Shown piece after piece: positions 489-27,615 of a stretch of 64,000 nucleotides of DNA. The stretch is from Patescibacteria group bacterium. GTDB lineage: Bacteria; Patescibacteriota; Microgenomatia; UBA8517. The stretch spans positions 20,091 through 84,090 of the forward strand of contig DASVCV010000002.1 in NCBI GenBank assembly GCA_036381415.1, given 5' to 3'. The stretch's first letter is position 1, and each line of letters opens with the position of its first letter. The position numbers and the translations under genes are program-made. The notes under the pieces are model-generated. The model was not told where the DNA came from and ran no database searches. It saw nothing but the letters and a program-made list of their open reading frames with translations.

Positions 489-1445
489 TTATCTTAAGAA
501 GCTGAAAGTTAAACTTCCGTATAGAATCCAGATGACCATCATTGTCCAAATTACGACTGATGCAACCAATGGAATATCTGACAGCAAAAGCTTTTCTGGA
601 GCCTCAGATCTCCCCTCAAAGATAAGTGCCTGATATCTCATTATTCCGAAAATTGTGACAGGGATTGTTATCATTAAAAGCTTGTTTATTGTTGTAGTGC
701 GTGAAAACTCTGAAAGGAAGAGCCAGAGATTAAGTGGTACTTTGGGAGATTCAAAAAATGTAAAGAGCGCCCAGCTCATCCAAGATGCATTTCCGAACAT
801 AGTTACATATGAATTAAGAAGATCTTTTGGATATTTCTGAAGAGATTTTCTGGTCTCCCCTCCTGGGACAATCCCCAATTCTGCTCTTCTTTTGCCTGAG
901 GCAAGGAAAAGAGCAACTGATATTACACAAAGAAGGAACCAGACTGAAAGATGGGCATCAATTACAAAAGCTCCTGCATAAATTCTTATTACAAAGCCGG
1001 TTGCAATAATGAGGATGTCTAGAACAGGTACGTTTTTAAGGATCAGTGAATAGGCTAACTGGATAAGAAGATAGCTTAGAATAAGTACAAATAACAGGTC
1101 TGAGAGAGCTTTGGAAAGAAGAAGAGCGATAACAGCTAGAAAAAGAGTTTCAGCTATGGCGATTGAGACAGGCAATGTTCCTTTTGCAATAGGTCTCCCC
1201 TTTTTGATTGGGTGAAGCCTATCTGAAGGCGCATCGACAATGTCGTTAAAAATGTAAGTGGCTGAAGCTGCAAGGCTAAATGCCCAAAAGGCCCAGAATG
1301 CTCTTAAAAAGAAAAACTTATCATATAGAAGACCTGAGAAAATAAGTGCAGCAAAGATACTTAAGTTTTTTGTCCAATGAGGAGGGCGAGTGACAAGAAT
1401 GGCAGCTTTTAATGTTTTAGCTATTTGGGACGGTAGGTAAGCCAT
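489..1445 (-). CDS. UbiA-family polyprenyl transferase (decaprenyl-phosphate phosphoribosyltransferase-like).
   Basis: About 8 predicted TM segments. The NDIVDAPSDRLHPIKKGRPIAKG stretch matches the UbiA NDxxDxxxD / RPIxxG motif. Genomic context is glycan carrier-lipid genes. Confidence 0.75.
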   Translation of the reverse strand: MAYLPSQIAKTLKAAILVTRPPHWTKNLSIFAALIFSGLLYDKFFFLRAFWAFWAFSLAASATYIFNDIVDAPSDRLHPIKKGRPIAKGTLPVSIAIAETLFLAVIALLLSKALSDLLFVLILSYLLIQLAYSLILKNVPVLDILIIATGFVIRIYAGAFVIDAHLSVWFLLCVISVALFLASGKRRAELGIVPGGETRKSLQKYPKDLLNSYVTMFGNASWMSWALFTFFESPKVPLNLWLFLSEFSRTTTINKLLMITIPVTIFGIMRYQALIFEGRSEAPEKLLLSDIPLVASVVIWTMMVIWILYGSLTFSFLR

Positions 1446-2488
1446 AATATTAATCCACCAATTGTGAATCCTACACCGATCATTGTATATAACTTAAAGT
1501 CAGTATTCAAATTAAGAGCTAAAATACCTAACAATGCAGTGATTGCCCAGTAAAGAAGTGCTACCTGGGGTTTGGTTAGACCTAAGTCTAGAAGACGGTG
1601 GTGTAAATGTCCCCTATCACCCCAGAACGGAGATTTGCCTGAGGCAATTCTTCTTACAATTACATAACCTGTGTCAATTAAAGGAACGGCAAGAGCTACT
1701 AAAAGAAGTCCAACCTTGGCTGTTGCAAGTATTGCTAATATTGCTAAAAGATAGCCTGCAAGGTTAGATCCAGCAAAGGAGGGCATTATCTTTTGCGGAT
1801 AGATGTGCCATGGAAGAAATCCTAGAAAAGCACCTCCTGTAGCAGCAGCTAAAATAATGACTGGTTTTTGAGTTGGATCTGGGGCAAATCTTAATGAAAG
1901 AATTGCTATGACAAAGGCTGCAATTGCAACTACTCCTGTTAGCTGGCCGTCTACTCCTTTTGCTCCAAAATTTAGAGCATTCATGAGAAGAACAATTAAA
2001 AAGAGAGCAAAAAGATCAGAAAGAATCCAAATACTATGAAAAGAACCAAAAATCTGGAAAGTAATTTGAGGATGAGAAAGATCTATTATTCCTCCAAATG
2101 GGTTTGTAATGTAGGCAATTCCAATTCCTGCTGCAATTGGGAAAAGAGCTGCTATAAACTGAATTACTAATCTAAGGTAAGGGTTAAGATCAAACTTATC
2201 ATCTAGAATACCCATTATCATAATCACAACAGCACCAGCAATAATTCCAAGAAGGTGTTTATCTATGGGAAGAAACACGGCAGTTGCTAAAAGAAATGCA
2301 GTAAAGATGGCAAGTCCTCCCCCTCTTGGTATTGGATAGGTATGGAGGACTTTGGGGTGTTTATGTTTGGCTGGATCATCTATAAGGCCAACTTTCCAAG
2401 AAAGGAGTAGGACAAAAGGTGTTACCAGAAATGAAATAATTGCTGCCAAAATTGCAGGAGGGAAAATAAGCTGGTTTATATTTGTCAT
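1421..2488 (-). CDS. Polyprenyl-phosphate sugar-1-phosphate transferase, MraY/WecA/TagO (GT4) family.
   Basis: Polytopic membrane protein with ILDDKFDLNPYLRL (DDxxD loop), NALNFGAKGVDGQ (NxxNxxDGxDG-like) and GHLHHRLL (HHR) motifs. Confidence 0.7.
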   Translation of the reverse strand: MTNINQLIFPPAILAAIISFLVTPFVLLLSWKVGLIDDPAKHKHPKVLHTYPIPRGGGLAIFTAFLLATAVFLPIDKHLLGIIAGAVVIMIMGILDDKFDLNPYLRLVIQFIAALFPIAAGIGIAYITNPFGGIIDLSHPQITFQIFGSFHSIWILSDLFALFLIVLLMNALNFGAKGVDGQLTGVVAIAAFVIAILSLRFAPDPTQKPVIILAAATGGAFLGFLPWHIYPQKIMPSFAGSNLAGYLLAILAILATAKVGLLLVALAVPLIDTGYVIVRRIASGKSPFWGDRGHLHHRLLDLGLTKPQVALLYWAITALLGILALNLNTDFKLYTMIGVGFTIGGLILWLTYRPK

Positions 2489-2809
2489 TTAAATTTTTCC
2501 TACAAGTAGAATTATTCTTAATACTGTAATTGCAGAAAGAGCTGTTACTACAACTGTAAGGCCAACAAGAATTTGTTTTATGAACTCTTCTTTAGAGGTT
2601 TTACTTATAAAAATATTGGCTCCAATGAAGGCGAGAGCTACAAAAGGAGGAATAATTAGAGCCCAGGTGTTTGCCAGTTGTTCATCTCCATATGGAAGGC
2701 CATAAAAAAGAGGTACAACAGGAGGTAGGTGCGGCTGCAAAAGAAGTATTACTAGAATTATGAGAAGATTTACGACAGCAGCTGCCACTTCTATTTTTTC
2801 TATTAGCAT
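2489..2809 (-). CDS. Small integral membrane protein (3-4 TM), function unknown.
   Basis: 106-aa hydrophobic ORF packed tightly (1 nt gap) between the GT4 and GT-C genes on the same strand. Confidence 0.4.
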   Translation of the reverse strand: MLIEKIEVAAAVVNLLIILVILLLQPHLPPVVPLFYGLPYGDEQLANTWALIIPPFVALAFIGANIFISKTSKEEFIKQILVGLTVVVTALSAITVLRIILLVGKI

Positions 2810-2828
2810 TTACCAAATTGTAGACTAA

Positions 2829-4349
2829 TTACTGTGGTAGACGCAATTGAGGCTTGGGAATGTTGATTTTGATCCAGATTTCATAGTTTGAGCTGGTTTC
2901 AACTGGAACATAGTTTAGAGCAAGAAAACTTCCAAGAGCTGGAAAACTTCCTCCTTCTTCTAGGGTTACTATGAATTTTGGCGGATTACTTTGCAGGGCT
3001 TTTATTACATCTTCTTTTGATGAAAAGTCACTGATATGATAATTTGCTACATATTTAAAAGGCGGAAGCCTTTTAGATAGTGCATAGATTGGTGGAGAAT
3101 CTCCCCAAACAAAAACAGGGTCATTGTAGTTTGATGATATAGAAAGATATTTGGCAATTTTGTAATTTCTATTAACATGAGAATCGAATTCATCAAAATA
3201 TTCTTCTTTTGATATCTGGTGTGTTGCAAATCTGATAAAGCGGCTGTAGTAGGTAAATGTTGAGTAGTAGTAAAACTTGTAATAGACAGGAACTAGAAGA
3301 GCTAAAAATAATGGTATTACTGCAAGAGCTTGTTCAATTCGAGTGGAAGCTAAGAGAATTGCAGTAAGAATAGATATTGGTGCAATAGATTGGATTAGAT
3401 AGTGGGGATACGGACGTTCGGAAAGAGTTGCTGCAAAGAGACTTGTTAATAGCCAAATGGTAGCAAAGATGAATGGTGTTGAAAGCTTCTTATTTTTAAT
3501 TTTAAGAATTACTAATCCTATTAGGATGACAGAGGATCTTAAAAGAAGAGGACCATTTTTAACTAAGAAAGGAGTTTGGTTTTCTCCCCCTCTCCAAGAT
3601 GAAAGGTAGCCAACATTTTGAAGGAATGCTGCAACTAGGTACTCATTAAATGCTCCTTTTGTCCAATACCAAATGAAGGTTGCAAGAATGGGCAGAATAA
3701 AACCTAAAGCAAGAACAAAAGTTTTTTTGATAATGCTAATAACATTTTCTTTATTTATTTTTGAAACTACAATCCAAAAAAGAACTACGGCTGGAACATC
3801 AAAACTTGCAGGGATTTTAAAAAGAGCTGCTAATGAAAAAAGAAGTCCTGCAAAAAAGATCTTTTTGTAATTTGGCTTAGTAAGAAGTATTAAAAAGGCT
3901 AGCATTATTGGGCCAATAAGGAAAAGTTCACTATTTACAATATTTCCTTCTAAAAGTGGAAGAGTGGAAAGAAGAGCAAAAATAACCGTAGCAATTTTTT
4001 GGAGTTTTGTGTTGTTTTCAAAAAGAATAGTTGTAAGTTTCCAGAATACTACCACAGTTACCAGCATCCAGAAGGCTAGAATTACTTTGAACCAAAAAAG
4101 GTTTCCGCCTATGGCTGCTAAAAGGTAAATTAGTGGAGGTTTATTGTCATGAATGTTTTTGTAGAGAGTAAGACCGTGACGAATTCCTTCTCCTAAAGTT
4201 AGATATATCATTTCATCTCCATATGAGTAGGGTTCAAAAAATGAAGGAATACGAAGTATTAATGTTAGACCTAAGAGGCAACAGAGCCAGTTTGGAATTC
4301 CTAACTTTCTATCTAATTCTTTGATCTTATTTATTATCTGACGAACCAT
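2829..4349 (-). CDS. GT-C fold membrane glycosyltransferase (ArnT/PMT-like, GT39/GT83 type).
   Basis: N-terminal YSYGDEMIY DE motif in the first extracytoplasmic loop, a following KPPL motif, and 10+ TM helices. Confidence 0.65.
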   Translation of the reverse strand: MVRQIINKIKELDRKLGIPNWLCCLLGLTLILRIPSFFEPYSYGDEMIYLTLGEGIRHGLTLYKNIHDNKPPLIYLLAAIGGNLFWFKVILAFWMLVTVVVFWKLTTILFENNTKLQKIATVIFALLSTLPLLEGNIVNSELFLIGPIMLAFLILLTKPNYKKIFFAGLLFSLAALFKIPASFDVPAVVLFWIVVSKINKENVISIIKKTFVLALGFILPILATFIWYWTKGAFNEYLVAAFLQNVGYLSSWRGGENQTPFLVKNGPLLLRSSVILIGLVILKIKNKKLSTPFIFATIWLLTSLFAATLSERPYPHYLIQSIAPISILTAILLASTRIEQALAVIPLFLALLVPVYYKFYYYSTFTYYSRFIRFATHQISKEEYFDEFDSHVNRNYKIAKYLSISSNYNDPVFVWGDSPPIYALSKRLPPFKYVANYHISDFSSKEDVIKALQSNPPKFIVTLEEGGSFPALGSFLALNYVPVETSSNYEIWIKINIPKPQLRLPQ

Positions 4350-5662
4350 ATAAATTTAAGGTCTGAAAATGTGTGGATTTCTCCTACATTATAATTTGGG
4401 ATTTTTACTTCATCGACCGGACCGCTTGTTATTACTCCAACTCTAAAAGCATTTTTGGGAAGAGTGTAGACAGTGTCAGAGGGTGTCATCAAAGCAGTTC
4501 CAACAAAGAAAGGAAGAGCACCCTTACTTGTTAAATAAATGGGTGCATCTATGTTGTAATATTTTGCTTCCCATAAATGATGGGCAGTTCCATTCCAGTT
4601 AACAACATAGTCGTCTCCCCTTTTTGATTCATGAACATATTGGGCTAAATCTTTAAAAGGAAGTTTTGTAGGATGAGTGAAGTAGGTGAAATCAATTATT
4701 AAAAAGAGGGAAACAAGAATTGCAATGAATGGTGTTGAGATTTTTCGTCTTGAAGAGGCAAGAACTAACATTCCTGCTGGGATTGCATAAAGAAGGTATC
4801 TGTCAAAAAAAATGGGTTGGAATTTTTGTGAGACAAGCCAAGTTAAAAGAATTGGGCCAAAAAACCAAAGAAGAAGAAAGGCTGATTTTTGTATGTTTTT
4901 GTGCCACTGTCTTAGAACTAAAATAATAAGTCCAAAAATTAGAGCTGGTTTGGCTAATGGGTTATTAATTCCAGTTGCAAGATATTTAGCAGAAAGTCCA
5001 AGAAAATCAGTAATGGTAGGTTTTCCTAACCAGAAGCCAGAGCCAACCATTTTGGTTTGGTTATAGAGTGGGATAAGCCAGGGAATATACAAGACTCCAA
5101 TTGCAAGGAAGGAAAGGAAGTGGGAAATTGCATTTTGCCTTTCTTCTTTTGCCTTTTTGCCTTTTTTTGTGAATGCAAATGCTGCTTGTTTTAGGAACCA
5201 AACTCCTTGGATAAATATTGCAAAGATAGCAAAGTGATGGGTGTAGAGGCTAAGAACAGTTGCTACTACATATGGAATCCACTTTTTGGTGAGCATGAAG
5301 TAGAAGGAAGCAGTTACTGTTAGGGCAAGTAAGCTGTACATTCTTCCTTCAAAAGCATAGTTAAAAAAGAAGGGATTTAGAAACACAAGAATGGCTGCAA
5401 TGGCAGCAACATTTTTGTCCCAAAGATATTCCCCAATTTTATATACAAAAAAGATGGCTAAGAGAAAAAAGAGGAAGGAAAGAAGTCTAATTGCTACTTC
5501 ACCATGTCCAAAAAAACCAAACCAGATATGTTCTAAAATGTTGTATAGAGGTGGAGATGTGTCATGAGTGATTGTAGAAATTATGTCAGGGATAGATTTT
5601 TGAGAAAGAACTGCTGAGAAAGCTTCATCACCCCAAATACTTACATTAAATTGGTTAAGCAT
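4334..5662 (-). CDS. GT-C fold membrane glycosyltransferase (PMT/YkcB-like).
   Basis: N-terminal WGDEAF DE motif, a polytopic membrane body and a C-terminal soluble domain. It overlaps the downstream GT-C gene by 16 nt, consistent with an operon. Confidence 0.65.
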   Translation of the reverse strand: MLNQFNVSIWGDEAFSAVLSQKSIPDIISTITHDTSPPLYNILEHIWFGFFGHGEVAIRLLSFLFFLLAIFFVYKIGEYLWDKNVAAIAAILVFLNPFFFNYAFEGRMYSLLALTVTASFYFMLTKKWIPYVVATVLSLYTHHFAIFAIFIQGVWFLKQAAFAFTKKGKKAKEERQNAISHFLSFLAIGVLYIPWLIPLYNQTKMVGSGFWLGKPTITDFLGLSAKYLATGINNPLAKPALIFGLIILVLRQWHKNIQKSAFLLLWFFGPILLTWLVSQKFQPIFFDRYLLYAIPAGMLVLASSRRKISTPFIAILVSLFLIIDFTYFTHPTKLPFKDLAQYVHESKRGDDYVVNWNGTAHHLWEAKYYNIDAPIYLTSKGALPFFVGTALMTPSDTVYTLPKNAFRVGVITSGPVDEVKIPNYNVGEIHTFSDLKFIWFVR

Positions 5663-5714
5663 TGTACTTTTAGTCTAGCAAGAAAGAGAAGGAAGTTAAA
5701 GTTTGGATTATGGA

Positions 5715-5945
5715 TTATAGATGAAGTGTGTCATCTCCCTCTGACACTTTTGAGTTACCTGCGTCAATTACTCTGTATGTGAAATCTTGTAGGTCGCCAC
5801 ACAGGCATTTACCATCAAAAAGATTAGATTTATTTAAATATTCTTTTGGAGGAAGAAGATTAAGGTGAGCCATATGTGAAATTAATTGTTTCTTTAGGCA
5901 TAATTCACAACCCAAGCATTGAGGAAGAGGACATCTTTCCAACAT
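5715..5945 (-). CDS. Small Cys-rich protein (CPLPQCLGCELC...CLC), possible metal or redox binder.
   Basis: 76-aa ORF with 6 Cys. Shares a CELC motif with the neighbouring 70-aa ORF. No homolog recognised. Confidence 0.25.
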   Translation of the reverse strand: MLERCPLPQCLGCELCLKKQLISHMAHLNLLPPKEYLNKSNLFDGKCLCGDLQDFTYRVIDAGNSKVSEGDDTLHL

Positions 5946-6044
5946 GGTTTATTATAACTTTACAAATTTTGAGGTCAAGGTCAGCAGTAAGAGGGGGATT
6001 TTTTCGATATTGAAAGCTATTGGTGGAGGAGAATATTGTGTTGT

Positions 6045-6257
6045 TCAACGTTTTTTGTGCAGAATAATAGTGTCTACTCCAAAAGTTTTGGACGTATCCA
6101 GCTTGCTCTTAAGATGCACCGATGATAATTCCCTTACCTTTGGACAAGGGGTGACGAATGCCAGGATTTTTTCAAGATCTATTCCTTTTGCTCTTGCTTT
6201 TGATAGCTTTTCCCAGTCGGCACATCCTCCTTCTTTGTTGCAGAGTTCACAGGACAT
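6045..6257 (-). CDS. Small CxxC-containing protein.
   Basis: 70-aa ORF starting MSCELCNKEGGC. Sits in an intergenic gap between the GT-C and GT2 genes on the same strand. Confidence 0.3.
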   Translation of the reverse strand: MSCELCNKEGGCADWEKLSKARAKGIDLEKILAFVTPCPKVRELSSVHLKSKLDTSKTFGVDTIILHKKR

Positions 6258-6289
6258 TGTCAGATATTACCTTAATGAATGGGTGATGT

Positions 6290-7783
6290 CTAGACTTTTT
6301 CCGTTACTTTATATTCTATATATTTACCCAACATAAGGCGTGTGTGCGCATCTAAACCTGGAAGAGCTGAGAAGAAAAACCCTGCAACAGGCATTAATAT
6401 AAATTCAAAAGGAACAAGAAGGGCACGCCATAACGGAAAGGTTGCCGGCCTTTTTGGTTTATAGTAACTATCAATAATAATCATTACTAGAAGAAATACT
6501 AGAGCAACTGTTAAAACAAAAGAGGAAAGTTTTGGAACAGTATAGCCTAGAACGGTTCTTCCAAAAGCTGGATTAAGAATTGTTGGGACTGTGAGTCCAA
6601 TTGTAATAATGAACCAGTTAACTGGCCATAAAAAGTGGGACCAGATTACATATACCAACCTTAATGTTTTTTCAAAGAAGGGAACGTCTGGGGTTAGGAA
6701 GTAATCTCTAATTATCCATGGATCATCTGAAGCTCCCCATGCCCATCTTTTAAGCTGTTCATATTGAGTAACTAGGGTTTTCCAGACAGTTGTTGATTGA
6801 GCAGCGTCTGCAAATAATGGAAGATAGATTGGTTCCACTTCTAGCTTTCCTTTCATTTTGTAAAAAGCTTTAAAAAATATTCCCCAATCTTCTGGAATTT
6901 TATCTGGATCCCAATAGCCTACTTCATCAAGAAGTTTAAAAGAAAGAGAGTAGTTTTGCTGATTAATAAGGCGGTCACGACGAGGTAGTTGAGAAAGATT
7001 CCAGATTGAGCCAAGAGTATTTTGAACACGAGTGATTGCAGGAAGTTCCCAAATGTTGTTGTAAAACATTACTGCTGGCTGCCAGAAGTAATTGTATCTT
7101 CTTGGATTATCTAAGAATTTAAAAGTAAGACAAGAGAAATGCTTGGGGTGGTATTTATGGTCTGCATCACAGGAGGTGACTGTATAGTAATTAATGTCTT
7201 GTCCTTTTGCATCAATTAAATTTTCTTTAACCCAAATTGCAGCAAAGCGTTCGTTAGAGGCCTTTCCGGCAACTTCACCAGGGACTAATTCATGAACTGT
7301 TACAACTAGATTTCCAAAAAGTTTGCCAAATTTTTCTTTTAATATTTTTACTTTAGGAAGACGAGACTCTTCTGGTTCTTTTTTCTCCATTGCCATTACA
7401 ACAATGAGCTGTTTAAGAGGAAGATCTTGAGAAGCCAGAGACTTAAGAGTTCTTTCTAAGATATGTATGGGTTCTTTGTAGGTTGGGATTATTACAACAT
7501 GACGTACCTTTTCCCAGTCGGGGAAAGCTTTAATATCCCCTACCCAATCAAAGTTCATTGAGGCTTGTACTCTTATATGGGAAATAACAACTGTGATTGC
7601 AATTTGGAGTGATTGGTAAAACCAGTAAATATTAAAAAATAAAACAAAGTAAGCAACTGCATTTGGGATAACAAGAATTCCCCAGTATGGAAAAAGAATT
7701 AAATTCCAGGAGACAAAACCTGGAAGGATTTCCAAGAATCTTAAAACACCTTTTTCATGCTTAAGAATAAAATTTCTAATCAT
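6290..7783 (-). CDS. Family 2 glycosyltransferase, processive type (cellulose/chitin-synthase-like) with C-terminal TM helices.
   Basis: VVIIPTYKEP (first D/UDP-binding region), SCDADHKY (DxD), QLKRWAWG (Q-x-x-R-W processivity motif), and N- and C-terminal TM segments. Confidence 0.75.
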   Translation of the reverse strand: MIRNFILKHEKGVLRFLEILPGFVSWNLILFPYWGILVIPNAVAYFVLFFNIYWFYQSLQIAITVVISHIRVQASMNFDWVGDIKAFPDWEKVRHVVIIPTYKEPIHILERTLKSLASQDLPLKQLIVVMAMEKKEPEESRLPKVKILKEKFGKLFGNLVVTVHELVPGEVAGKASNERFAAIWVKENLIDAKGQDINYYTVTSCDADHKYHPKHFSCLTFKFLDNPRRYNYFWQPAVMFYNNIWELPAITRVQNTLGSIWNLSQLPRRDRLINQQNYSLSFKLLDEVGYWDPDKIPEDWGIFFKAFYKMKGKLEVEPIYLPLFADAAQSTTVWKTLVTQYEQLKRWAWGASDDPWIIRDYFLTPDVPFFEKTLRLVYVIWSHFLWPVNWFIITIGLTVPTILNPAFGRTVLGYTVPKLSSFVLTVALVFLLVMIIIDSYYKPKRPATFPLWRALLVPFEFILMPVAGFFFSALPGLDAHTRLMLGKYIEYKVTEKV

Positions 7784-9207
7784 TATTTTAGCCGTGGGAA
7801 AAGAGGATTACCCTTTTTGATTTTAGGCCCTTTAAATTGTTTTTCTATTTTGTTGGCAGTATCGGGAAGGAAGGGTTTGAGATCTACTGCAATTTGTCTA
7901 ATATCATTAACAAGAAATTCAAGTACTTTTTGAAGTTCTTCTCCTTTTAATTCCCAGACTTTTTTACTATTTATTAGAATGTCTGCTTCTTTTATTTTGT
8001 CCCAAATAAATTTTAAAGCATCGTCAAACTCGTAATTAGAAAGAGCGATATCGATGTCTGGTTCTATATTGGATTTATTTTCTGGAAAACTAAATTTAGA
8101 GTTTTGGGCAAGGGTTGAAATTCTAGAGATTAAATTTCCGAGGCCGTTTGCTAGGTCTGCATTATATGCAGTTTCAAATTTTTCGAAAGTGAAATCGCTG
8201 TCTTCCCATGGATGAATTTTTGCTAGTAGATAATATCTAGTTGCATCAGTTCCATATTTTTCTACTAGTTCATATGGAGAAACCACATTCCCCAAACTTT
8301 TGCTGATTTTTTGCCCATCCTTAGTTACAAAACCATGAATGAAGACTTGTTTAGAGTTTGGAAGACCTGCTGACATTAACATTGCTTGCCAGATAGCTGT
8401 TTGTTGACGAAGGTTATCTTTTCCAGCAAATTGGATTACAGGCCACCATTTTTTAAATTCATTTGCTTTATCAGGCCACCCTATTGCTGAAACATAATTC
8501 ACTAAGGCATCGAACCATACAAACATTACATGTTCTGGATCCCCTGGGACATCTATTCCCCATGGCATTTTGCTTTTCAGTCTTGAAATACTGAAGTCTT
8601 GAAGGCCGTTTTTGACGAATGTTTTTATTTCTTTGTACTTTGATTCGGGAACTACAAAATCTTGGTTTTTTTCATAAAACTTTAGTAATTTATCTTGGTA
8701 TTTGGAAAATTTAAAAAAATAATTTTCTTCTTCGTATATTTCTATTTGTAAGTTTGGATGAATTGGGCATCGATTATCTACAAGTTCTGAGTCGGTTTTT
8801 TCCAGTTCGCATCCTACGCAATACTTAATTTTGTAAAGTTTTTTGTAGATATCTCCATTTTTTAAGCATTTTTCCCAGAATTCTTGAGCTGCTTTTATGT
8901 GGTGTTCATCAGTAGTTCTTATGAAGCTATTGTAGGTCAGATTAAGGGCCTTTTTAAGATTGTCAAACTTGGTTGCGTATTCATTTACATATTGTTGCGG
9001 CTTTTTTCCTTGCTCGATTGCTTTTCTATAGATTTTTAGACCATGCTCGTCTGTTCCAAAGTTAAAAAATACGCTATATCCAGACAACTTTTTGTGCCTG
9101 GCATAGGCATCTGCCTGCACTATTTCAAGTGCAAATCCTATGTGTGGATCAGAGTTGACATACGGTAGTGTTGTTGTTAAGTAGATGTTTTTTGTGCTCA
9201 TGCGCAA
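7783..9207 (-). CDS. metG: Methionyl-tRNA synthetase (minimal form, no C-terminal tRNA-binding appendix).
   Basis: PYVNSDPHIGF (HIGH-class motif), KISKSLGN (KMSKS), and a zinc knuckle CVGCE...CPIH. Confidence 0.9.
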   Translation of the reverse strand: MRMSTKNIYLTTTLPYVNSDPHIGFALEIVQADAYARHKKLSGYSVFFNFGTDEHGLKIYRKAIEQGKKPQQYVNEYATKFDNLKKALNLTYNSFIRTTDEHHIKAAQEFWEKCLKNGDIYKKLYKIKYCVGCELEKTDSELVDNRCPIHPNLQIEIYEEENYFFKFSKYQDKLLKFYEKNQDFVVPESKYKEIKTFVKNGLQDFSISRLKSKMPWGIDVPGDPEHVMFVWFDALVNYVSAIGWPDKANEFKKWWPVIQFAGKDNLRQQTAIWQAMLMSAGLPNSKQVFIHGFVTKDGQKISKSLGNVVSPYELVEKYGTDATRYYLLAKIHPWEDSDFTFEKFETAYNADLANGLGNLISRISTLAQNSKFSFPENKSNIEPDIDIALSNYEFDDALKFIWDKIKEADILINSKKVWELKGEELQKVLEFLVNDIRQIAVDLKPFLPDTANKIEKQFKGPKIKKGNPLFPRLK

Positions 9208-10222
9208 ATTTTAGCATGTCTATACCTTTATAGCCATATATTTTATTCCTATAGTTTATGTTTTTAAGTAATTTTTTACAGTCCCTAATTTTTTCTTTAT
9301 GTTTTAGATGTGGCTTTAAGAGTGTGGCAAAACGATAATTATCTATTTTTCGATCTAGGGTTAAAATCCAATAGTTATGGTTGTGTGAGTAACCATCTTT
9401 TCCTGTGTAGCCTTTTTTGACTCCTAGAAAGATTTTAGGATGAAACTTTCTTTTAGCTAGAAAATTAAATATTTGTTTAAGAATTGCTTTGTTATAGTTC
9501 CCAAGAGAAAATTTTGCAGACTTTTTATCTTTTGTAATGTAAAAACTACCCTCTGCGTCTATAAATCCTGCTAGTATGGATAGAAAAATTTCATTCTTTT
9601 TAAAAACCCAGCTGGGAAATTTTGAGTATTTTTTAAGTAGAAATTCGAAAGAGTTGTCTACACTACATTCAATCTGTTGTTTTCCTGTTTTGTAGGTTTT
9701 ACTTATCCAAATTCTTCCGTATGGAAACAGAAGCCTCTTAATTAATTTGATTTGTTCTGCATGAGTTGAGGCACAATCTATAAGAATTGTTTCACTATTT
9801 TTATACATTTTTCTTACTCTTAGATCACCTATTCTAAACCCAAGAATATATGCTTTTTCCTTTAGGTTTTCTGAAAACGGACGTCTTTTTGTAATAATGT
9901 GTGCTGCTGCTAAACTTTTTATGGGAAGATCATAATTTCTTATTTTTCTATCGATTGTGGAATACGCACACTTGTAAATTTTTGCAATTTTTCTACTAGA
10001 TAATTTTTGTTTAACATATAACTTTTTTAGTTCCTCTTTACTTATATTTGGTCCAGGTATTCCTGATGATCTTAGTGGAATTTCTAATTCTTTTGCTCTT
10101 ATTTCGATAGTTCTTACACTAAAACCTAATAGCTTTGATATTTTTAGTAGATTCCAGTGTTTGTTTATGTAGTAATTTTCTAATAGTTCTTTGGTTATAA
10201 TATTTCTTCTTTTTGTCGGCAT
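9149..10222 (-). CDS. Free-standing double-motif LAGLIDADG homing endonuclease with two N-terminal NUMOD1-like HTH modules.
   Basis: Two dodecapeptide motifs, AYILGFRIGDL and LAGFIDAEGSF, separated by about 90 aa. Two HTH-like repeats (LGFSVRTIEIRAKEL; SRKIAKIYKCAYSTIDRKIR). Very AT-rich compared with its neighbours. The 3' end overlaps the metG start by about 58 nt. Confidence 0.7.
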   Translation of the reverse strand: MPTKRRNIITKELLENYYINKHWNLLKISKLLGFSVRTIEIRAKELEIPLRSSGIPGPNISKEELKKLYVKQKLSSRKIAKIYKCAYSTIDRKIRNYDLPIKSLAAAHIITKRRPFSENLKEKAYILGFRIGDLRVRKMYKNSETILIDCASTHAEQIKLIKRLLFPYGRIWISKTYKTGKQQIECSVDNSFEFLLKKYSKFPSWVFKKNEIFLSILAGFIDAEGSFYITKDKKSAKFSLGNYNKAILKQIFNFLAKRKFHPKIFLGVKKGYTGKDGYSHNHNYWILTLDRKIDNYRFATLLKPHLKHKEKIRDCKKLLKNINYRNKIYGYKGIDMLKFAHEHKKHLLNNNTTVCQL

Positions 10223-15814: not shown

Positions 15815-16075
15815 TTACTTAAAAGACATTATTAGAAGGCCAGATTTTTGAATATCAGATTGAGTCCAGAACTTTTGTTTTTTAGTATTTAAGACGAAAG
15901 TTATCTCTTTTTCTAATTTTCTACCAGTGTATTTTTTAGTTACCGGGTCATATTCTTCAAGAACTAAGATATCTCCTTTTTTACAACTAAAATTAGCAAG
16001 TCTGGCATCAAAGGTTTTTTTACCATCCAAAATTTCTTGAAAGAATGGCATCCAAGTTTTCTTCCTAATTTTCAT
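15815..16075 (-). CDS. ASCH-like / DUF3850 domain protein.
   Basis: 86 aa with the W-x-PFF-x-I-x-x-GKKTF-x-R ... GD-x-LVL-E ... YTGR pattern typical of DUF3850. Confidence 0.55.
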   Translation of the reverse strand: MKIRKKTWMPFFQEILDGKKTFDARLANFSCKKGDILVLEEYDPVTKKYTGRKLEKEITFVLNTKKQKFWTQSDIQKSGLLIMSFK

Positions 16076-16914
16076 AATTTGATTATACTATTTGTTTTTT
16101 TGAAACTTCCAGGATATTCAACTTCGTTTCCTCCAAACCCTTTTTTAAATTTAGTAAAACCTTTCCATGAGTTAAGAGGAAATCTTTCATCATAAATTCC
16201 ATCAAAATCAAATACTTTATGTTTACACTTCTTTCCTAAAAGTATCGCTTGCCAAGTTAGAAGAGTTGGTGCAAACAGTTTTCTTCCTAAACTATTGCTT
16301 GCAGCATACATATAATAAATAGTGTTATTGGTACTTAGAAGCAAAAGACCAGCAATTATTTTTTTGTTCTTTTTTGCAATTAGCGAGTCTGATTTATTTC
16401 CAAAAGCATCATAAATGGCAATTATGCTTTTCTTTTGAGAAAGAAATGGGAATCTTTTCCTTTCAAAATTTTCTCTCCAGAACTTTGCAAATTCATTTAT
16501 ATTTTTGGAGTGGGTAATTTCTACCCCTTTTTTCTTAGAGAGATTAATGTTGTATCTAGTTTTGGAAGACATATCTAAGAGTAGATTCTTTTCAGATTTT
16601 GTAAGATCAATTTGTATAGTTTTAGTTGGAAGAGAAAAAGATTTACCTTTTTTGAAGTTGTTTTTTAATAATAAATTATGAGAAGAGGAGAAGAACGGTA
16701 AATCTGGTTCAATAGTTGTTTGATATATTTTATATTTATTCTGTAAATATTTTATATCTTTAAGAATTAGTTTTTTAGGTCTTTGAACTTTTAATAAATA
16801 TCCAAGTAATGGAATTCTTTTTAAAAAATAATAATTACCATTAATTTTTTCTACTTTCCATCCAATAGATTTTAGATAGCTTGCCCATTCACTGGTTTGT
16901 CTTAAATCTTTCAT
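16072..16914 (-). CDS. FemAB/FemX-family peptidyl (aminoacyl-tRNA-dependent) transferase for peptidoglycan bridge formation.
   Basis: N-terminal region MKDLRQTSEWASYLKSIGWKV and overall about 280-aa GNAT-duplication architecture. Paralog of the 17471..18406 ORF. Confidence 0.6.
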   Translation of the reverse strand: MKDLRQTSEWASYLKSIGWKVEKINGNYYFLKRIPLLGYLLKVQRPKKLILKDIKYLQNKYKIYQTTIEPDLPFFSSSHNLLLKNNFKKGKSFSLPTKTIQIDLTKSEKNLLLDMSSKTRYNINLSKKKGVEITHSKNINEFAKFWRENFERKRFPFLSQKKSIIAIYDAFGNKSDSLIAKKNKKIIAGLLLLSTNNTIYYMYAASNSLGRKLFAPTLLTWQAILLGKKCKHKVFDFDGIYDERFPLNSWKGFTKFKKGFGGNEVEYPGSFKKTNSIIKL

Positions 16915-16946: not shown

Positions 16947-17474
16947 ATGAATAAGTTTTTGAAGTTTGTGCTTGGACTTTCAATTGTAGGAGTGGCTGCA
17001 GTTGTTTTAGTTCCTGTAATTTTTCTTTTGTTATATTTGTTTGTTTTTAAACCTGTAAAAATAGTTGGCTTGTCTATGGCTCCAAGCTATAAGAATGGAC
17101 AATACTATATGGTAAATAAGCTAGGTAGGAATAATATTTCAAGAGGAGATGTAATTATTTTTCGCGTACCACCAGAAGGTAAAAGTGATTACATACAGAG
17201 AGTTGTAGGTTTGCCTGGGGAAAAAGTAAAAATAGAGAAAGGGAAGGTTTATATAAATGGACAAGTGCTAAATGAGAGTTATCTTGATTCTGGTATTACT
17301 ACGAATTCAGGTACTTACTTAGAAGAAGGGAAGGAAGTTACAATTCCAGAAAATAAATATGTGACATTTGGAGACAACCGAGATCATAGTCTTGATTCAA
17401 GAATTTTTGGATTTCTTCCAAGGGAAAATGTTGTTGGTAAAGTGTGGTTTTGCTATTTTGCTTGCAGTCTTTAG
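16947..17474 (+). CDS. lepB: Signal peptidase I.
   Basis: N-terminal TM, then VGLSMAPSY (catalytic Ser box), RVVGLPGEKV and GDNRDHSLDSR boxes. Confidence 0.85.
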   Translation: MNKFLKFVLGLSIVGVAAVVLVPVIFLLLYLFVFKPVKIVGLSMAPSYKNGQYYMVNKLGRNNISRGDVIIFRVPPEGKSDYIQRVVGLPGEKVKIEKGKVYINGQVLNESYLDSGITTNSGTYLEEGKEVTIPENKYVTFGDNRDHSLDSRIFGFLPRENVVGKVWFCYFACSL

Positions 17475-18406
17475 AACTTCGGTTTAGATAAACCTGTTGA
17501 TGATTTTCCTTTTAAGTAAAACCATCTTGCTGTGTCAAATCCTTTATATAGATAGTAGAGAGGTTTGTTTATAATCAAATCCCAAGTTCCTACAAATTCA
17601 ACAACTTCTGGATTAAATCCTTCTTTAAACGGAGTAAAGCCTTTACCTGGTTCTCTTCCCCACATATCAAAAGTTTTTAATCCATTCTTTTTTCCAAATT
17701 TGATGGCCTCCCACATCATTAAATTGTTTGGCATTACATTTTTATATTTGTCTGAGCTTGCTCCATATGGATAATAAAGAAATTCTTTGTATGTAAATAG
17801 AACCCAGGTTGTAACTATTTCATTATTAAAAGATGCAGTTAATAGATGGGCAATGCCTGCAGGATGTAGTGTTTCCCACATTAGTCTGTGGTATTTTTCA
17901 TTATGAGCATAGAAGTTTTGTCGTTGAGTGGTTTGCCTTGTTAATTTGATATATTCATTAAAGGCTTTATCTGAGTTGTCTTCTTTGACTTCTACACCTT
18001 TTCTTTGAGCAAGGCGGATGTTGTACCTGGTTTTTGGCTTAAACGAGGAAAGAAGTTCATCTTCTTTTTTTGTTAGGTCTAGCCAAAATGTAGTTGGAGT
18101 AAAGAAGGTCTTTCCTTTAACACAATGATTTTGTTTTAGGAGATTAATTACGCTTTCATCTTTAAGGGTATTTGGTTCAAGTTTTATAAAAATTAGATTG
18201 CTCTTTTTTGCAAAATCTTTTAAGTACTCTAGCATCTCCTTGGTTGGAGTTGGGCCTTTTATAAACATCCCAAGCTTATATTTAGTAAGAGGAATTTTGT
18301 GAAGAGTAAGGGTGCCGTATTTGGTCTCTACTACTTCATTCCCCCATTTTTTTCTAAATAAGCTCCATGCAGGAGATTGGAGAGGATGTTGAGATGGAAC
18401 TTTCAT
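17471..18406 (-). CDS. FemAB/FemX-family peptidoglycan bridge-forming transferase (second paralog).
   Basis: MKVPSQHPLQSPAWSLFRKKWGNEV N-terminus and overall similarity to the 16072..16914 ORF. Confidence 0.6.
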   Translation of the reverse strand: MKVPSQHPLQSPAWSLFRKKWGNEVVETKYGTLTLHKIPLTKYKLGMFIKGPTPTKEMLEYLKDFAKKSNLIFIKLEPNTLKDESVINLLKQNHCVKGKTFFTPTTFWLDLTKKEDELLSSFKPKTRYNIRLAQRKGVEVKEDNSDKAFNEYIKLTRQTTQRQNFYAHNEKYHRLMWETLHPAGIAHLLTASFNNEIVTTWVLFTYKEFLYYPYGASSDKYKNVMPNNLMMWEAIKFGKKNGLKTFDMWGREPGKGFTPFKEGFNPEVVEFVGTWDLIINKPLYYLYKGFDTARWFYLKGKSSTGLSKPKF

Positions 18407-18407
18407 T

Positions 18408-20276
18408 TTAATAAAGATTGTCTGTATCTATATCTATATTATACTCATCTAGGATATATTCATTGTCTGAAGATTCCAAAAGGCTTTCTGGAATATCAAT
18501 TATGAATCTTGAGATTGGGTTTGAAACTCTTTGTCCAAAGAAAAGTCTGTGAGAAGCGTAGGTGAGGAAAAGTACTTCTTTTGCACGGGTAACTCCAACA
18601 TATGCAAGACGCCTTTCCTCTTCAATTTGATTTGAGTCAAAAAGAGACCTTGAGTGAGGAAAGATTCCATCTTCCATTCCTACTAAAAAGACGACAGGGA
18701 ATTCGAGACCTTTGGCGGCATGAAGAGTCATTAGGGTTACTTTATTTGAATTTGATCCATTGGAAGTGTGGAGTGTCCCATCTGAATTTTGTTCTGCTTG
18801 AACAAGAGCTACATTTTCAAGAAACTCTTGAATATTTGGAAATTGGGTGGCAACAGATCTTAATTCTTTAATGTTTTCTAGCCTTTGAATATTTTCTTCA
18901 GTTTCTTTTTTGTAAGAGGAAAGATAGTCAATTGCAGATACAAGAGAGTCCATTATATCTAGGGTTGTGTAGTTTTCTAAGCTTTCCAGTTTAGATTTAA
19001 ATTCCTCAAACTTTGCTTTTCTTCTGACACCAAGTTTGTCTACCCTTTTTTGAGAAACTTTATCTCTTGGATTAACTAGTAGCCTTAAGAAGGAAAGAAC
19101 GTCTTTAATTTCTTTTCTGTCATAGAATTTGACGCCACCAACAAGGACGTAGGGAATTCCTGCATGAAGAAGGGATTCTTCTAAGACACGAGATTGGGCA
19201 TTTGTTCTATACAAGATTGAAAAATCTCGGAGGGAGTAGCCTTGAGTTTTAAGACTTGCAATTTTGTTTACAATGAAAGCTGCTTCGTCAAAACCGCTTT
19301 TGGCTTGGTAGAGTTTTATTTTTTTGCCAGTATCATTTAAGGTCCAGAGCTTAAGGATTGGGTGAGAGGTGTTTTTGGAAATGATTGCATTTGCTGCATC
19401 AAGAATTGTTTGGGTGGAGCGGTAGTTTTGTTCAAGATTTATTACTTTCAAGTTTGGATAGTCTCTTGAAAGATAATTAATGTTTCTATAGTCTGCACCA
19501 CGCCAAGAATAGATTGATTGGGATGCATCTCCTACACAAGTCAGGTTTCCTGTAGAGCCAACTAAAAGTTTGGTCAGATGATACTGGATTTTGTTTGTGT
19601 CTTGCCACTCATCAACTAGTATGTGAGTTAGTTTTTGCTGCCACTTAGTGCGAACTTGGGGTTTTTCTTCTAGAAGTTTGACAGTTTTATTTAGAAGATC
19701 ATCAAAATCAAGGGCATTGATTTCAGTGAGAAGTTTTTCATAGCTTGCAAAAATTTTAAAAACTTTTTCATCAAAATCTGTTTGTGCATTTTCTCCAAAG
19801 GCAAGTGCATTAATCATTTTGTTTTTTGCACTGGAAATTATATTTGCTACAGCAGCTGGGTTGTATGAATCTTCAGAAAGATTAAAATCAGAAAGCACTT
19901 CTTTGATTGCATCTTTTTGGTCTGCATCATCATATATGACAAAGTCGGGTGAAATTCCAATTTCACGTCCATCGATTCTAAGAAGCTTTACACAGAAAGC
20001 ATGGAAGGTGCCTGCAAAACCAGGCATATCACTTGAAAGCTTTGCAATTCTTTCCTTCATCTCGGTGCTTGCTTTGTTTGTAAAAGTCATGAGAAGGATT
20101 TGAGTTGCGGGTACTCCTTGGGAGATAAACCAGGCAGCACGGTGGGTTAAGACTTTTGTTTTACCTGAACCTGCTCCTGCAAGAACCAGAAGCGGACTTT
20201 TAGGGTATGTGACTGCGTCTATCTGAGCTTTATTTAAATCTGCTAAAATATCCATGATGGTAAAGAAAAGAAACAA
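18408..20276 (-). CDS. ATP-dependent DNA helicase PcrA/UvrD family.
   Basis: LLVLAGAGSGKTKVLTHR (Walker A), DEWQDTN, YRSTQ, TLHAAKGLEFPVVFL, VGVTRAKE. The annotated TTG start (20276) is less likely than the in-frame ATG at 20255 (MDILADLNKAQ). Confidence 0.85.
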   Translation of the reverse strand: MFLFFTIMDILADLNKAQIDAVTYPKSPLLVLAGAGSGKTKVLTHRAAWFISQGVPATQILLMTFTNKASTEMKERIAKLSSDMPGFAGTFHAFCVKLLRIDGREIGISPDFVIYDDADQKDAIKEVLSDFNLSEDSYNPAAVANIISSAKNKMINALAFGENAQTDFDEKVFKIFASYEKLLTEINALDFDDLLNKTVKLLEEKPQVRTKWQQKLTHILVDEWQDTNKIQYHLTKLLVGSTGNLTCVGDASQSIYSWRGADYRNINYLSRDYPNLKVINLEQNYRSTQTILDAANAIISKNTSHPILKLWTLNDTGKKIKLYQAKSGFDEAAFIVNKIASLKTQGYSLRDFSILYRTNAQSRVLEESLLHAGIPYVLVGGVKFYDRKEIKDVLSFLRLLVNPRDKVSQKRVDKLGVRRKAKFEEFKSKLESLENYTTLDIMDSLVSAIDYLSSYKKETEENIQRLENIKELRSVATQFPNIQEFLENVALVQAEQNSDGTLHTSNGSNSNKVTLMTLHAAKGLEFPVVFLVGMEDGIFPHSRSLFDSNQIEEERRLAYVGVTRAKEVLFLTYASHRLFFGQRVSNPISRFIIDIPESLLESSDNEYILDEYNIDIDTDNLY

Positions 20277-21452: not shown

Positions 21453-22577
21453 TTAGAAAGCCCATTGGCCTTTGACAAAAAGAACGGAGAAATAAAGTAG
21501 AAGACAGGAAAAGATTAATACCAAAGGTATAAACACTATTTTTCTTTTTGAAATTAAAGCAAGAAATATAAACAAGGGAGGGATTGAAAGAAGGTATCTT
21601 GGAGTGCTTAAAAGAAAACTTGTTGAGGTAATAAAAAGGATAGAAAGAATATAATAGACCCAGTCTCTTACTTTTAATTTTTTAATTATGAAAGGAATAA
21701 GAGCAAAACATAGAATGGCAAGTCCCCCTTCAAAAAGACCAAGCATGAGTGAATCATGAGTCAGAGGTATTTTAAGAAATCCTAGACTGTTTTTTATACT
21801 AACCCATGGAAAATCAAGATGTTTGTACCAATGAGTTTCTAGAACTTCTTTAAAAGCAAAGATTTTACCAAACAATAACCAATTAACAGCAAGGTAAGTA
21901 GAAATAGAAATAATGAATGGAATTGTTATCAGAACTGAGAGAAGAATTTTTTTCTTTAAATTAATTTTTTCTAGTAGTAAAGAAACAAAAAGAGTGGGTA
22001 GTGTTATTAAGCCCATTGTTCTTGTTAAAAAGGTCAGTGCTCCCGAAAGAGAGGACTCATACCAATTTTTGTTTTGAGAAAAGAAGAAGCAGGATACTAA
22101 AAGGAAAAAGAATAATGATTCTGTATATCCAATTGAAAAAAAGTATGAAGTCGGAAAAATATTAAGAAGCACAAGAGATTTTAAGGCAGTTTGTTCATCG
22201 TAGTCTTTTTTTACAAGAAGGTAGAATACTAAACTTCCTAGAATGAAGAAGAAATTGGATACTAATAAAGCTGAAGTAAATACGTTTTTAATTAGCAAAT
22301 TAGCAAAGGTTACAATTGCAGGATATAGAGGTGGGAAAACTATGAAGTTTGCTTCATCTCCACTTGTTCCATACCAATGTTGGGTTATATATAAATAGTG
22401 AGGAGTGTCCCATCTGTTCCAGGTAGAGTCCAGAAGGATGGGTTTATGTGTTTGATAGCCAACTATTAAAAGGGGAAGAATAAGAATAACAATTCTTCCT
22501 AATCCTATTAGAAGAGCAATGGAGATAAGTTTATGTTTTTCTGACTGTAGTTTAAGCCTTTGCATTAAATGTCTCAT
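21453..22577 (-). CDS. Polytopic membrane protein, probable GT-C-type glycosyltransferase (DUF2029/GT87-like).
   Basis: 11+ TM helices with a conserved acidic/aromatic first loop (WNRWDTPHYLYI). The fold assignment is inferred. Confidence 0.45.
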   Translation of the reverse strand: MRHLMQRLKLQSEKHKLISIALLIGLGRIVILILPLLIVGYQTHKPILLDSTWNRWDTPHYLYITQHWYGTSGDEANFIVFPPLYPAIVTFANLLIKNVFTSALLVSNFFFILGSLVFYLLVKKDYDEQTALKSLVLLNIFPTSYFFSIGYTESLFFFLLVSCFFFSQNKNWYESSLSGALTFLTRTMGLITLPTLFVSLLLEKINLKKKILLSVLITIPFIISISTYLAVNWLLFGKIFAFKEVLETHWYKHLDFPWVSIKNSLGFLKIPLTHDSLMLGLFEGGLAILCFALIPFIIKKLKVRDWVYYILSILFITSTSFLLSTPRYLLSIPPLFIFLALISKRKIVFIPLVLIFSCLLLYFSVLFVKGQWAF

Positions 22578-26019: not shown

Positions 26020-26023
26020 ATTA

Positions 26024-27597: not shown

Positions 27598-27615
27598 AAA
27601 TTGTTTGTAAATTCT

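Follow-up and report, generated by a model that had tools for sequence, protein, structure and literature searches.

Here we present an analysis of a 64,000-nucleotide stretch of DNA from a Patescibacteria group bacterium (assembly GCA_036381415.1, contig DASVCV010000002.1, positions 20,091 to 84,090), referred to below as the window, in which six membrane-enzyme genes lie on the minus strand between positions 489 and 7783. The closest relatives of the proteins encoded by this cluster come from Candidatus Woesebacteria, within the Microgenomates of the candidate phyla radiation (CPR), and our overall picture, held with moderate confidence, is that of a core envelope-glycan locus in a Candidatus Woesebacteria genome. 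In this reading, which we consider the probable one, the cluster builds a cell-surface glycan by way of a lipid-linked ribose donor, and the glycan would be fixed to peptidoglycan by a LytR-CpsA-Psr (LCP) ligase. Judging from the alignments, the most original features appear to be a clade of PNPT-family enzymes that lack two canonical aspartates and depend on a small three-helix membrane protein, and the deep conservation of this enzyme together with a GT2 glycosyltransferase and a phosphoribosyltransferase in the Microgenomates.

The argument starts from the UbiA-superfamily protein (489-1445, minus strand; 318 residues), which is very probably a polyprenyl-phosphate 5-phosphoribosyltransferase (PPPRS) of the Rv3806c type. 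It matches Pfam PF01040 at 69.4 bits (cut-off 34.2), and its top NCBIfam matches are two decaprenyl-phosphate phosphoribosyltransferase (DPPRS) models, NF008977 at 209.6 bits (cut-off 234) and NF008978 at 204.3 bits (cut-off 207), so that it falls slightly under the equivalog cut-offs of both best models; a third DPPRS model gave 146 bits. NF006088, a 482-residue model named 'UbiA family prenyltransferase', scored 152.7 bits in a match confined to the UbiA portion of the model (positions 190-378), and we infer that it models the phosphatase-fused form; the window protein has no extra (phosphatase) domain. The best other prenyltransferase family reached 37 bits, and a quinone or heme-O prenyltransferase can be set aside, the heme-O, ubiquinone, menaquinone and chlorophyll models giving at most 28 bits against the ~205-210 bits of DPPRS. 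The sole relative in the PDB is Rv3806c of M. tuberculosis (two structures; 8j8j, E=1e-32). The initial annotation had proposed this protein as the synthase of a polyprenyl-phosphate-pentose donor, and the DPPRS profiles and the single structural relative agree with it; profile searches and Foldseek placed neither the UbiA protein in the quinone or heme-O clades nor the GT-C proteins of the cluster in membrane families other than glycosyltransferases.

Using the PDB-match alignment to Rv3806c, read against the ligand roles given in the structural paper (PMC10994848), we were able to match all twelve ligands of the mycobacterial enzyme, Y157 being represented by a Phe that is also found at this position in some mycobacteria (PMC10994848). 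The Mg ligands N73 and D77 correspond to N67 and D71 of the window protein; the 5-phosphate and lipid-phosphate ligands K28, Y70 and Y157 to K26, Y64 and F151; the ribose ligand Q135 to Q129; and the pyrophosphate ligands R22, K87, R90, K143, Y138 and K208 to R20, K81, R84, K137, Y132 and K200. When 79 orthologs are compared, eleven of these twelve positions are conserved in 97% or more of them, and K200 in 60-85%. The residues shown to matter in ORF15 of C. youngae, an ND-xx-D-xxx-D motif and an R/E pair (PMC11127046), are present as well (N67-D68-x-x-D71-x-x-x-D75 and R186...E189). By this homology, the enzyme should convert polyprenyl phosphate and phosphoribosyl pyrophosphate (PRPP) to polyprenyl-phospho-ribose-5-phosphate at the cytoplasmic face of the membrane.

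The UbiA gene shares 25 nucleotides with that of a divergent protein of the polyprenyl-phosphate N-acetylhexosamine-1-phosphate transferase (PNPT) family, here GT4 (1421-2488, minus strand; 355 residues), an overlap that suggests translational coupling. GT4 matches Glycos_transf_4 (PF00953) at 74.3 bits and by profile is closest to WecA (91 bits for the equivalog model TIGR02380, whose cut-off is 326, and 41 bits for MraY). It has ~10-11 transmembrane (TM) helices and the WecA-like N-terminal loop DxP..H....PRGGG, and it keeps D96 and D97 of the DDxxD Mg site (invariant in 80 orthologs), N170, N173, D180-G-Q, PLID272, R279 and R280, as well as the C-terminal D291-R-G-H294-L-H296-H297, in which the His residues are invariant among orthologs; in E. 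coli WecA, the HIHH-type motif serves in nucleotide-sugar recognition. Two other positions have changed. The Mg-binding or catalytic Asp of the MGDxGS motif, D265 in Aquifex MraY, corresponds to F238 of GT4, a position occupied by Tyr or Phe in 79 of the 80 orthologs, by Trp in the other one and never by an acidic residue. In NxxNxxDGxDG, the first Asp (MraY D193) is replaced by K177, accompanied by an insertion of one residue, and the motif in the 80 orthologs reads N-x-x-N-[MWF]-G-A-K-G-V-D-G-Q instead of NxxNxxDGxDGL. These correspondences come from alignments to three MraY structures, in which the single sequence and a 43-sequence profile were concordant. Furthermore, when the best 150 relatives from a search of 1.84 billion representatives were considered, the top-scoring ones shared the changes (G-x-DGQ, IMPG[YF]) and the lower-scoring ones kept LDGLDGL and MGDxGS. 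On these alignments GT4 belongs to a separate PNPT clade without the two canonical aspartates, so that its earlier description as a WecA-like initiator holds for the family and fails for canonical WecA.

Abutting the GT4 gene is the gene for a small membrane protein, sTM (2489-2809, minus strand; 106 residues), with three predicted TM helices and the conserved motif LPPxVPLFYGxPxGExQL. It has no convincing Pfam family and no NCBIfam family, and its 101 homologs are all hypothetical proteins, the named ones belonging to Woesebacteria, Daviesbacteria or Patescibacteria and hence all to the CPR. We read sTM as belonging to the GT4 enzyme, either as its partner or as a domain that can be detached, and not as a flippase in its own right, because an sTM profile matches the N-terminal ~120 residues of ~21 of the best 150 GT4 relatives (E down to 1e-20), which are fusion proteins of 470-523 residues. 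Identification of sTM as a flippase of the GtrA, SMR or EamA type found no support across the 48 members scanned, and the fusions to GT4 point to an enzyme subunit.

The third constant member of the cluster is a membrane-embedded GT2 glycosyltransferase (6290-7783, minus strand; 497 residues), assigned to Glyco_trans_2_3 (PF13632) at 33.3 bits against a cut-off of 27, with a GT-A domain between predicted N- and C-terminal TM helices. D206-A-D208, E298-D299 and Q343-L-K-R346-W347 are invariant in its homologs; the usual DDG motif is replaced by A-M-E133, and no PilZ domain or partner genes accompany it. There was no significant sequence match in the PDB, including the solved synthases. Its AlphaFold model is poor (pLDDT 55.7) because the homologs in the alignment are all at least 74% identical, and the fold matches obtained with this low-confidence model are weak (E ~1e-2), comprising the Chlorella-virus hyaluronan synthase, PcManGT and BcsA. 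At the level of motifs, GT2 carries the signature of a synthase-type beta-glycosyltransferase. The DAD, ED and QLKRW motifs behind its initial designation as a processive enzyme are real, and processivity is a prediction from these motifs.

Two GT-C proteins are encoded between GT2 and sTM. GTC1 (2829-4349, minus strand; 506 residues) has no Pfam or NCBIfam match, and its homologs are named ArnT-like or GT39 in the source annotations. An AlphaFold model built on an alignment of 51 homologs reached a pLDDT of 88.9 and a pTM of 0.88, and all significant Foldseek matches of this model in the PDB were GT-C enzymes: STT3, DPY19, AglB, ArnT (TM-score 0.53), ALG12, PMT, PglB and AftD. An invariant Y43-G-D45-E46 stands directly after the first TM helix, where the catalytic acids of GT-C enzymes lie, and an S-E-R312-P-Y-P-H-Y motif is also conserved. 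As modeled, GTC1 is a GT-C fold enzyme whose acidic motif lies in the outer loop that follows the first TM helix, and it thereby falls in the class that uses lipid-linked donors outside the membrane. The GTC2 gene (4334-5662, minus strand; 442 residues) overlaps that of GTC1 by 16 nucleotides and encodes a protein of the PMT_2 type (36 bits, cut-off 26) with WGDE at residues 10-13, invariant in homologs. Neither GTC2 nor any of its 31 orthologs has a TM helix before WGDE, the start lying ~9 residues ahead of the motif; either the N-terminus is translocated, or the first helix comes from another protein. The pair had been put forward as GT-C transferases with DE motifs, which the fold of GTC1, the PMT_2 match of GTC2 and the invariant motifs confirm.

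To place these genes in context, we compared 80 genome loci from Woesebacteria/Microgenomates, retrieved with the UbiA protein and numbered with the prefix L. Nearly all of them share the order RmuC (minus strand), small membrane protein, TrpR, methionyl-tRNA synthetase (MetRS), GT2, variable slot, GTC1, sTM, GT4 and UbiA, followed by a convergent PEGA/SH3 gene. The order of the glycan genes returns in most of these 80 independent genomes, far more than chance would give. Between GT2 and GTC1, the slot is a hot spot, with GTC2 in 32 of the 80 loci, a short-chain dehydrogenase/reductase (SDR) of the epimerase/dehydratase kind on the opposite strand in 20, and NUDIX, PIN, MOSC, GNAT, ATP-grasp, LepA, S20 or other genes elsewhere. 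GTC2 is thus an accessory gene, and GTC1, found in 77 of the examined loci, is the near-universal GT-C of the cluster. Median identities across Woesebacteria are 72% for GT2, 65% for GT4, 63% for UbiA, 54% for GTC1, 47% for MetRS and 39% for sTM, which makes GT2 the best conserved of the set and leaves GT2, GT4 and UbiA all more conserved than MetRS.

The distant lineages define the constant part. L084 has contiguous genes for GT2 (47% identity), GTC1 (32%), sTM, GT4 and UbiA, followed by a PMT gene on the same strand; L082, from Daviesbacteria, has GT2 (34% identity), sTM, GT4 and UbiA; L085 has GT2, an sTM-GT4 fusion and UbiA; and L086 and L088 share the layout of L085, with a protein of 494-512 residues in the GT2 position that is known by length and place alone. 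MurJ, LepA, sTM, GT4 and UbiA follow one another in L068 and L073. All four of the sTM-GT4-type relatives viewed in their contigs lie beside a UbiA gene, and three have a protein of ~490-510 residues just upstream, in which Glyco_trans_2_3 was found for L085; the fourth has a 113-residue, sTM-sized ORF (open reading frame) and a contig-end fragment ahead of GT4. In nearly all of the loci examined, the GT4 and UbiA genes adjoin or overlap each other; they are set apart by 1.3 kb of inserted sequence in L086 and by ~580 nucleotides in L088. What stays constant is thus sTM-GT4-UbiA, accompanied almost always by GT2, and to this core GTC1 is the usual and GTC2 an optional addition. GT2, sTM/PNPT and PPPRS occur together in all but three of the ~90 genomes examined, and deep CPR lineages have inherited GT2, sTM plus GT4, and UbiA as a set. 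A comparison of synteny across CPR genomes had been suggested for this locus at the outset, and it bears out both the recurrent order and the core.

Three genes in related loci are recorded here in their own right. The slot SDR (L009, L015, L018, L020, L022, L034 and others) is an extended SDR of 312-383 residues, with dTDP-glucose 4,6-dehydratase, LegB, GalE and UXS as its best profiles, none of which reached its cut-off. One possibility is a nucleotide-sugar enzyme; alternatively, there may be a hint of a counterpart to ORF13, which in Citrobacter converts lipid-linked ribose to xylose; as a proven polyprenyl-phosphate-pentose epimerase it was rejected, being a generic extended SDR encoded on the opposite strand and absent from the window. 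A CYTH-domain gene (L085, 10440-11096), encoding a triphosphate-tunnel metalloenzyme, directly follows UbiA on the same strand, and its product is a possible stand-in phosphatase. The PMT-family gene in L084 (10428-12104), likewise directly after UbiA on the same strand, encodes a full GT-C protein.

A ligase that could complete the pathway is encoded 13-17 kb from the cluster, together with two more GT-Cs. The LCP gene (20254-21450, plus strand), already noted in the initial annotation, is genuine: the protein matches PF03816 LytR_cpsA_psr at E=3.5e-37 and TIGR00350 at 108.8 bits (cut-off 62.3), and has one TM helix at residues 67-85, as an N-terminal membrane anchor. The first of the adjoining GT-C genes (21453-22577, minus strand; GTC3) is of the PMT_2 type (28 bits), and the second (22569-25151, plus strand; 860 residues) matches Pfam PMT at 62.6 bits and PMT_4TMC at 66.9 bits. 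Within this pair, the NCBIfam protein O-mannosyltransferase model gave 70 bits, far under its cut-off. No mutual sequence similarity could be detected among GTC1, GTC2, GTC3 and the PMT-like protein.

The logic of the donor pathway can be drawn from work on other bacteria. Kelly et al. (PNAS 2024; PMC11127046) described widespread systems in which pentofuranoses are added outside the membrane by a GT-C enzyme working with a flippase and a UbiA-type synthase, the pentose being ribofuranose unless an epimerase intervenes, an SDR leading to xylofuranose (Xylf) and DprE1/E2 to arabinofuranose (Araf) (PMC11127046). In the pathway that we propose, the UbiA protein would make polyprenyl-phospho-ribose-5-phosphate from polyprenyl phosphate and PRPP, and dephosphorylation and flipping by proteins encoded outside the cluster would yield a polyprenyl-phospho-ribofuranose donor; ribofuranose is predicted, not arabinofuranose, because this genome's cluster has no epimerase. 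The sTM-GT4 pair would start a glycan on polyprenyl phosphate, the synthase-like GT2 would elongate and perhaps export it, and GTC1, in some strains with accessory GT-Cs such as GTC2, would add pentofuranose from the donor to the surface glycan. The nearby LCP ligase is a candidate for the last step, fixation of the glycan to peptidoglycan. The constancy of PNPT and the synthase-like GT2, with LCP and two GT-Cs nearby, suggests a peptidoglycan-linked polymer put together in the way of mycobacterial arabinogalactan. Wall linkage through LCP is plausible, and glycosylation of pilins or S-layer proteins is a serious alternative as regards the acceptor.

Several points weigh against this pathway. 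The enzyme activities and the glycan are predictions from the genes alone. Pfam was run over the majority of the larger window ORFs, the ORFs in the slots of the 80 loci and the annotated contexts (L001, L082-L088), and this scanned set contained no 5-phosphatase (PAP2, HAD or PRP), no GtrA, SMR or MATE flippase and no DprE1/DprE2 epimerase pair; the window's sole MOP-family gene is a genuine MurJ (33364-35055; 263 bits, cut-off 236). The 64 kb of the window are ~6% of a genome of ~1 Mb, other parts of which may encode an epimerase or the steps that are missing here. The Daviesbacteria-type cluster (L082) has no GT-C, and GT4, without the two aspartates of the MraY/WecA catalytic site, may catalyze something other than simple priming. 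For GT2, the model is poor, and the QxxRW motif also occurs in non-processive lipid glucosyltransferases. Finally, gene order in Woesebacteria is kept for housekeeping genes too (RmuC, TrpR, MetRS, GroEL); within-class synteny is therefore weak evidence, and the distant loci alone carry weight. The absence of a 5-phosphatase, DprE1/E2 and a recognizable flippase, both in the window scans and beside the related clusters, also contradicts the initial description of a complete-looking toolkit, a description that was otherwise largely right at the level of families, overstating completeness, the canonical WecA identity and the processivity of GT2.

The polyprenyl-phospho-pentose might instead feed GT-Cs that O-glycosylate pilins or S-layer proteins, with the same donor chemistry and a different acceptor. 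TfpW, which arabinosylates Pseudomonas pilin, and the PMT enzymes are precedents for such a system, the top fold matches of GTC1 include oligosaccharyltransferases and PMTs, and the window contains a PMT-like GT-C, type IV pilus genes (PilN/PilO) and large surface proteins, yet the cluster is linked to no acceptor protein. Similarly, a PMT-family gene stands directly after UbiA in L084, and a DPPRS ortholog has been proposed to supply Araf glycosylation of pilin in P. aeruginosa (PMC11127046), but the constant partners of the UbiA protein, PNPT and the synthase-like GT2, would be needless for single-sugar protein glycosylation, and the LCP ligase lies between other GT-Cs. We consider this explanation unlikely.

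Less probable still, and in our view doubtful, is that the genes are neighbors and not parts of one pathway, the GT-Cs using polyprenyl-diphosphate-linked glycans or polyprenyl-phospho-hexoses, the UbiA product serving separately, and GT2 making an exopolysaccharide of its own or the anchor of a glycolipid. The conservation of woesebacterial gene order even for unrelated genes would allow this, as would the unrelated NUDIX, PIN, LepA, MOSC and S20 genes in the slot that parts GT2 from the rest, the apparent placement of GT2 in its own unit with MetRS, the optional status of GTC2, and the inclusion of single-transfer lipid glucosyltransferases among QxxRW GT2s. It is harder to reconcile with L082, L084 and L085, where GT2, GT4 (with or fused to sTM) and UbiA stay together despite differing surroundings, and with the like layout of L086 and L088, in so far as length and place identify the protein in the GT2 position. 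Moreover, GT4 and UbiA are nearly always overlapping or abutting, and polyprenyl-phospho-pentose has no known use except as a GT-C donor.

A true D-arabinofuranan of the arabinogalactan type, with DprE1/E2 homologs, encoded elsewhere, epimerizing polyprenyl-phospho-ribose to polyprenyl-phospho-arabinose and the GT-Cs acting as arabinofuranosyltransferases, is improbable. The closest characterized relative of the UbiA protein is the mycobacterial enzyme, AftD and Emb proteins are among the fold matches of GTC1, and the adjacency of GT2, GT-C and UbiA genes recalls the aftB-ubiA-Rv3807c-glfT2 region of M. tuberculosis; nonetheless, the scanned set held no flavin adenine dinucleotide (FAD)-oxidase/DprE2-type gene, and the surveyed Araf producers carry DprE1/E2 inside the cluster (PMC11127046).

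At the far end of the scale, a long shot, is the idea that PNPT with its three-helix module transfers a sugar-1-phosphate onto the free 5-phosphate of polyprenyl-phospho-ribose-5-phosphate and not onto bare polyprenyl phosphate, which would explain the absent 5-phosphatase, the GT4-UbiA coupling and the rewired PNPT active site. If true, the GT2/PNPT/PPPRS trio would be a lineage-defining pathway of the Microgenomates, with a new class of lipid-linked intermediate.

Taking a ribose-containing, LCP-fixed surface glycan as the preferred reading, the cluster would in its logic be a minimal analogue both of the three-component pentofuranose systems and of mycobacterial arabinogalactan assembly. 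In C. youngae O1/O2 the three components are ORF15 (PPPRS-PRP), ORF14 (MATE flippase) and ORF12 (GT-C/GT136) (PMC11127046). The window cluster has in common with that system a UbiA-type PPPRS with the ND-xx-D-xxx-D and R/E residues, one or more GT-Cs encoded beside it (GTC1 by fold and GTC2 by PMT_2) and optional accessory genes in a variable position, the SDR in 20 of 80 loci recalling ORF13, which takes ribofuranose to Xylf. It differs in having no fused or adjacent phosphoribose phosphatase and no MATE, SMR or GtrA flippase, in its vertical inheritance, in its link to PNPT and a synthase-like GT2 in place of a role as an O-antigen add-on, and in its host, a Gram-positive-like CPR bacterium.

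The mycobacterial pathway to arabinogalactan and decaprenylphosphoryl-arabinose comprises WecA (Rv1302), GlfT1/2, UbiA (Rv3806c), Rv3807c, DprE1/E2, Rv3789, AftA-D/Emb and Lcp1. A PNPT initiator, a GT2 polymerase, PRPP chemistry of the Rv3806c type, GT-Cs acting outside and an LCP ligase are all represented in the window, and the PRPP, Mg and lipid-phosphate ligands of Rv3806c are matched one for one. In contrast, neither DprE1/E2 nor an Rv3807c-type phosphatase nor an Rv3789-type protein was found in the scanned window and contexts, GT2 is polytopic with QxxRW where mycobacteria have a soluble GlfT2-like enzyme, the PNPT lacks the two canonical aspartates, and the GT-Cs, at 440-510 residues, are without the carbohydrate-binding domains of Emb.

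The individual enzymes show the same mixture of likeness and difference. GT4 shares with WecA, TagO and MraY the Glycos_transf_4 domain, the number of helices, the DD motif and the DxP..H....PRGGG loop, and with WecA the PLxD...RR and DRxH-L-HH motifs; unlike them, its clade has Tyr/Phe for the Asp of MGDxGS, Lys, Ser or Asn for the first Asp of NxxNxxDGxDG and a DGQ ending, needs or is fused to the three-helix module, and sits beside a PPPRS. GT2 resembles BcsA, class I hyaluronan synthase, NodC/chitin synthase and PgaC/IcaA in its GT-A domain between TM helices and its DxD, ED and QxxRW motifs, and departs from such synthases in the A-M-E133 in place of DDG, the absence of a sequence match to solved ones and the absence of PilZ or partner genes.

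To our knowledge, the envelope glycans of the CPR have never been characterized, and almost no CPR bacteria have been cultured. Our literature searches that paired CPR, Patescibacteria or Woesebacteria with DPPRS, UbiA or teichoic/LCP brought up no relevant work. The locus gives a concrete prediction in this setting, a ribofuranose-containing surface or wall polymer made via a polyprenyl-phospho-ribose donor, and it is a conserved and strongly constrained part of the genomes of Woesebacteria and related Microgenomates. It would carry both the recently defined pentofuranose pathway and the enzyme class of Rv3806c, a drug target, into a lineage that is very far removed. Additionally, a PNPT clade that breaks two active-site rules of MraY and WecA and has an extra three-helix module bears on a family of antibiotic targets.

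The coordinates of the cluster genes are those of the ORFs listed earlier, and their minus-strand placement was confirmed. The intergenic gap within the variable slot (5663-6289; 627 nucleotides) contains a sigma-70-like site, TTGACC-16-TATAAT (11 of 12 positions) at 5978-5951 on the minus strand, that ranks highest within the first 11 kb, and a second promoter-like site at 5734-5707; it is a probable promoter region for an operon running from GTC2 to UbiA. This site would place GT2, whose start overlaps the MetRS stop by one nucleotide, in a separate transcription unit, and GT2 is probably co-transcribed with MetRS. The gap also holds two Cys-rich orphan ORFs on the minus strand, 6045-6257 (70 residues) and 5715-5945 (76 residues), which have a 'CELC' motif in common; the site at 5978-5951 lies just upstream of the latter. 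Neither the gap nor its ORFs has a homolog in the 80 related loci or a Pfam match, and the two ORFs, extra to the six membrane-enzyme genes, are probably not part of the glycan system. Two other explanations of the gap were rejected: a decayed gene, such as an epimerase like that of C. youngae O1, since no ORF or DNA similarity was seen in the 80 loci beyond the ends of the flanking genes, and a riboswitch or other structured RNA (a PRPP riboswitch had been considered), since there was no Rfam match and the sequence folded no better than its shuffles (z = +1.1).

Other features of the window, which has a GC content of ~35% and in which a scan found no tRNA or rRNA, can be described briefly. 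A 357-residue ORF upstream of MetRS (9149-10222, minus strand), with a LAGLIDADG_3 match (24.7 bits, cut-off 22.5) and repeats of helix-turn-helix type, ends 59 nucleotides inside the MetRS start. A homolog occupies the same position in one of the 80 related loci (L020), and the ORF resembles the gene of a homing endonuclease that is free-standing and has inserted upstream of MetRS. Two FemAB-family genes (16072-16914 and 17471-18406, both on the minus strand) lie on either side of a signal peptidase gene, with a UvrD-type helicase beyond each; the pair would imply a peptidoglycan with interpeptide bridges, consistent with a Gram-positive-type wall as the target of LCP. In the PMT-like protein encoded at 22569-25151, the PMT domain begins at about residue 465, and the N-terminal half forms a second polytopic domain, with ~8 predicted helices and no family match; the start of its gene overlaps that of the divergent GT-C gene at 21453-22577, which the LCP gene adjoins. 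Beyond it are four consecutive minus-strand ORFs of 242, 498, 238 and 563 residues (25291-30033) without Pfam or NCBIfam match and with a GC content of 0.45 against 0.35. They adjoin a Big_13/fn3 surface protein (30045-31382) and PilO/PilN-like genes (31714-32953), and may represent a pilus-associated or acquired block of surface-protein genes.

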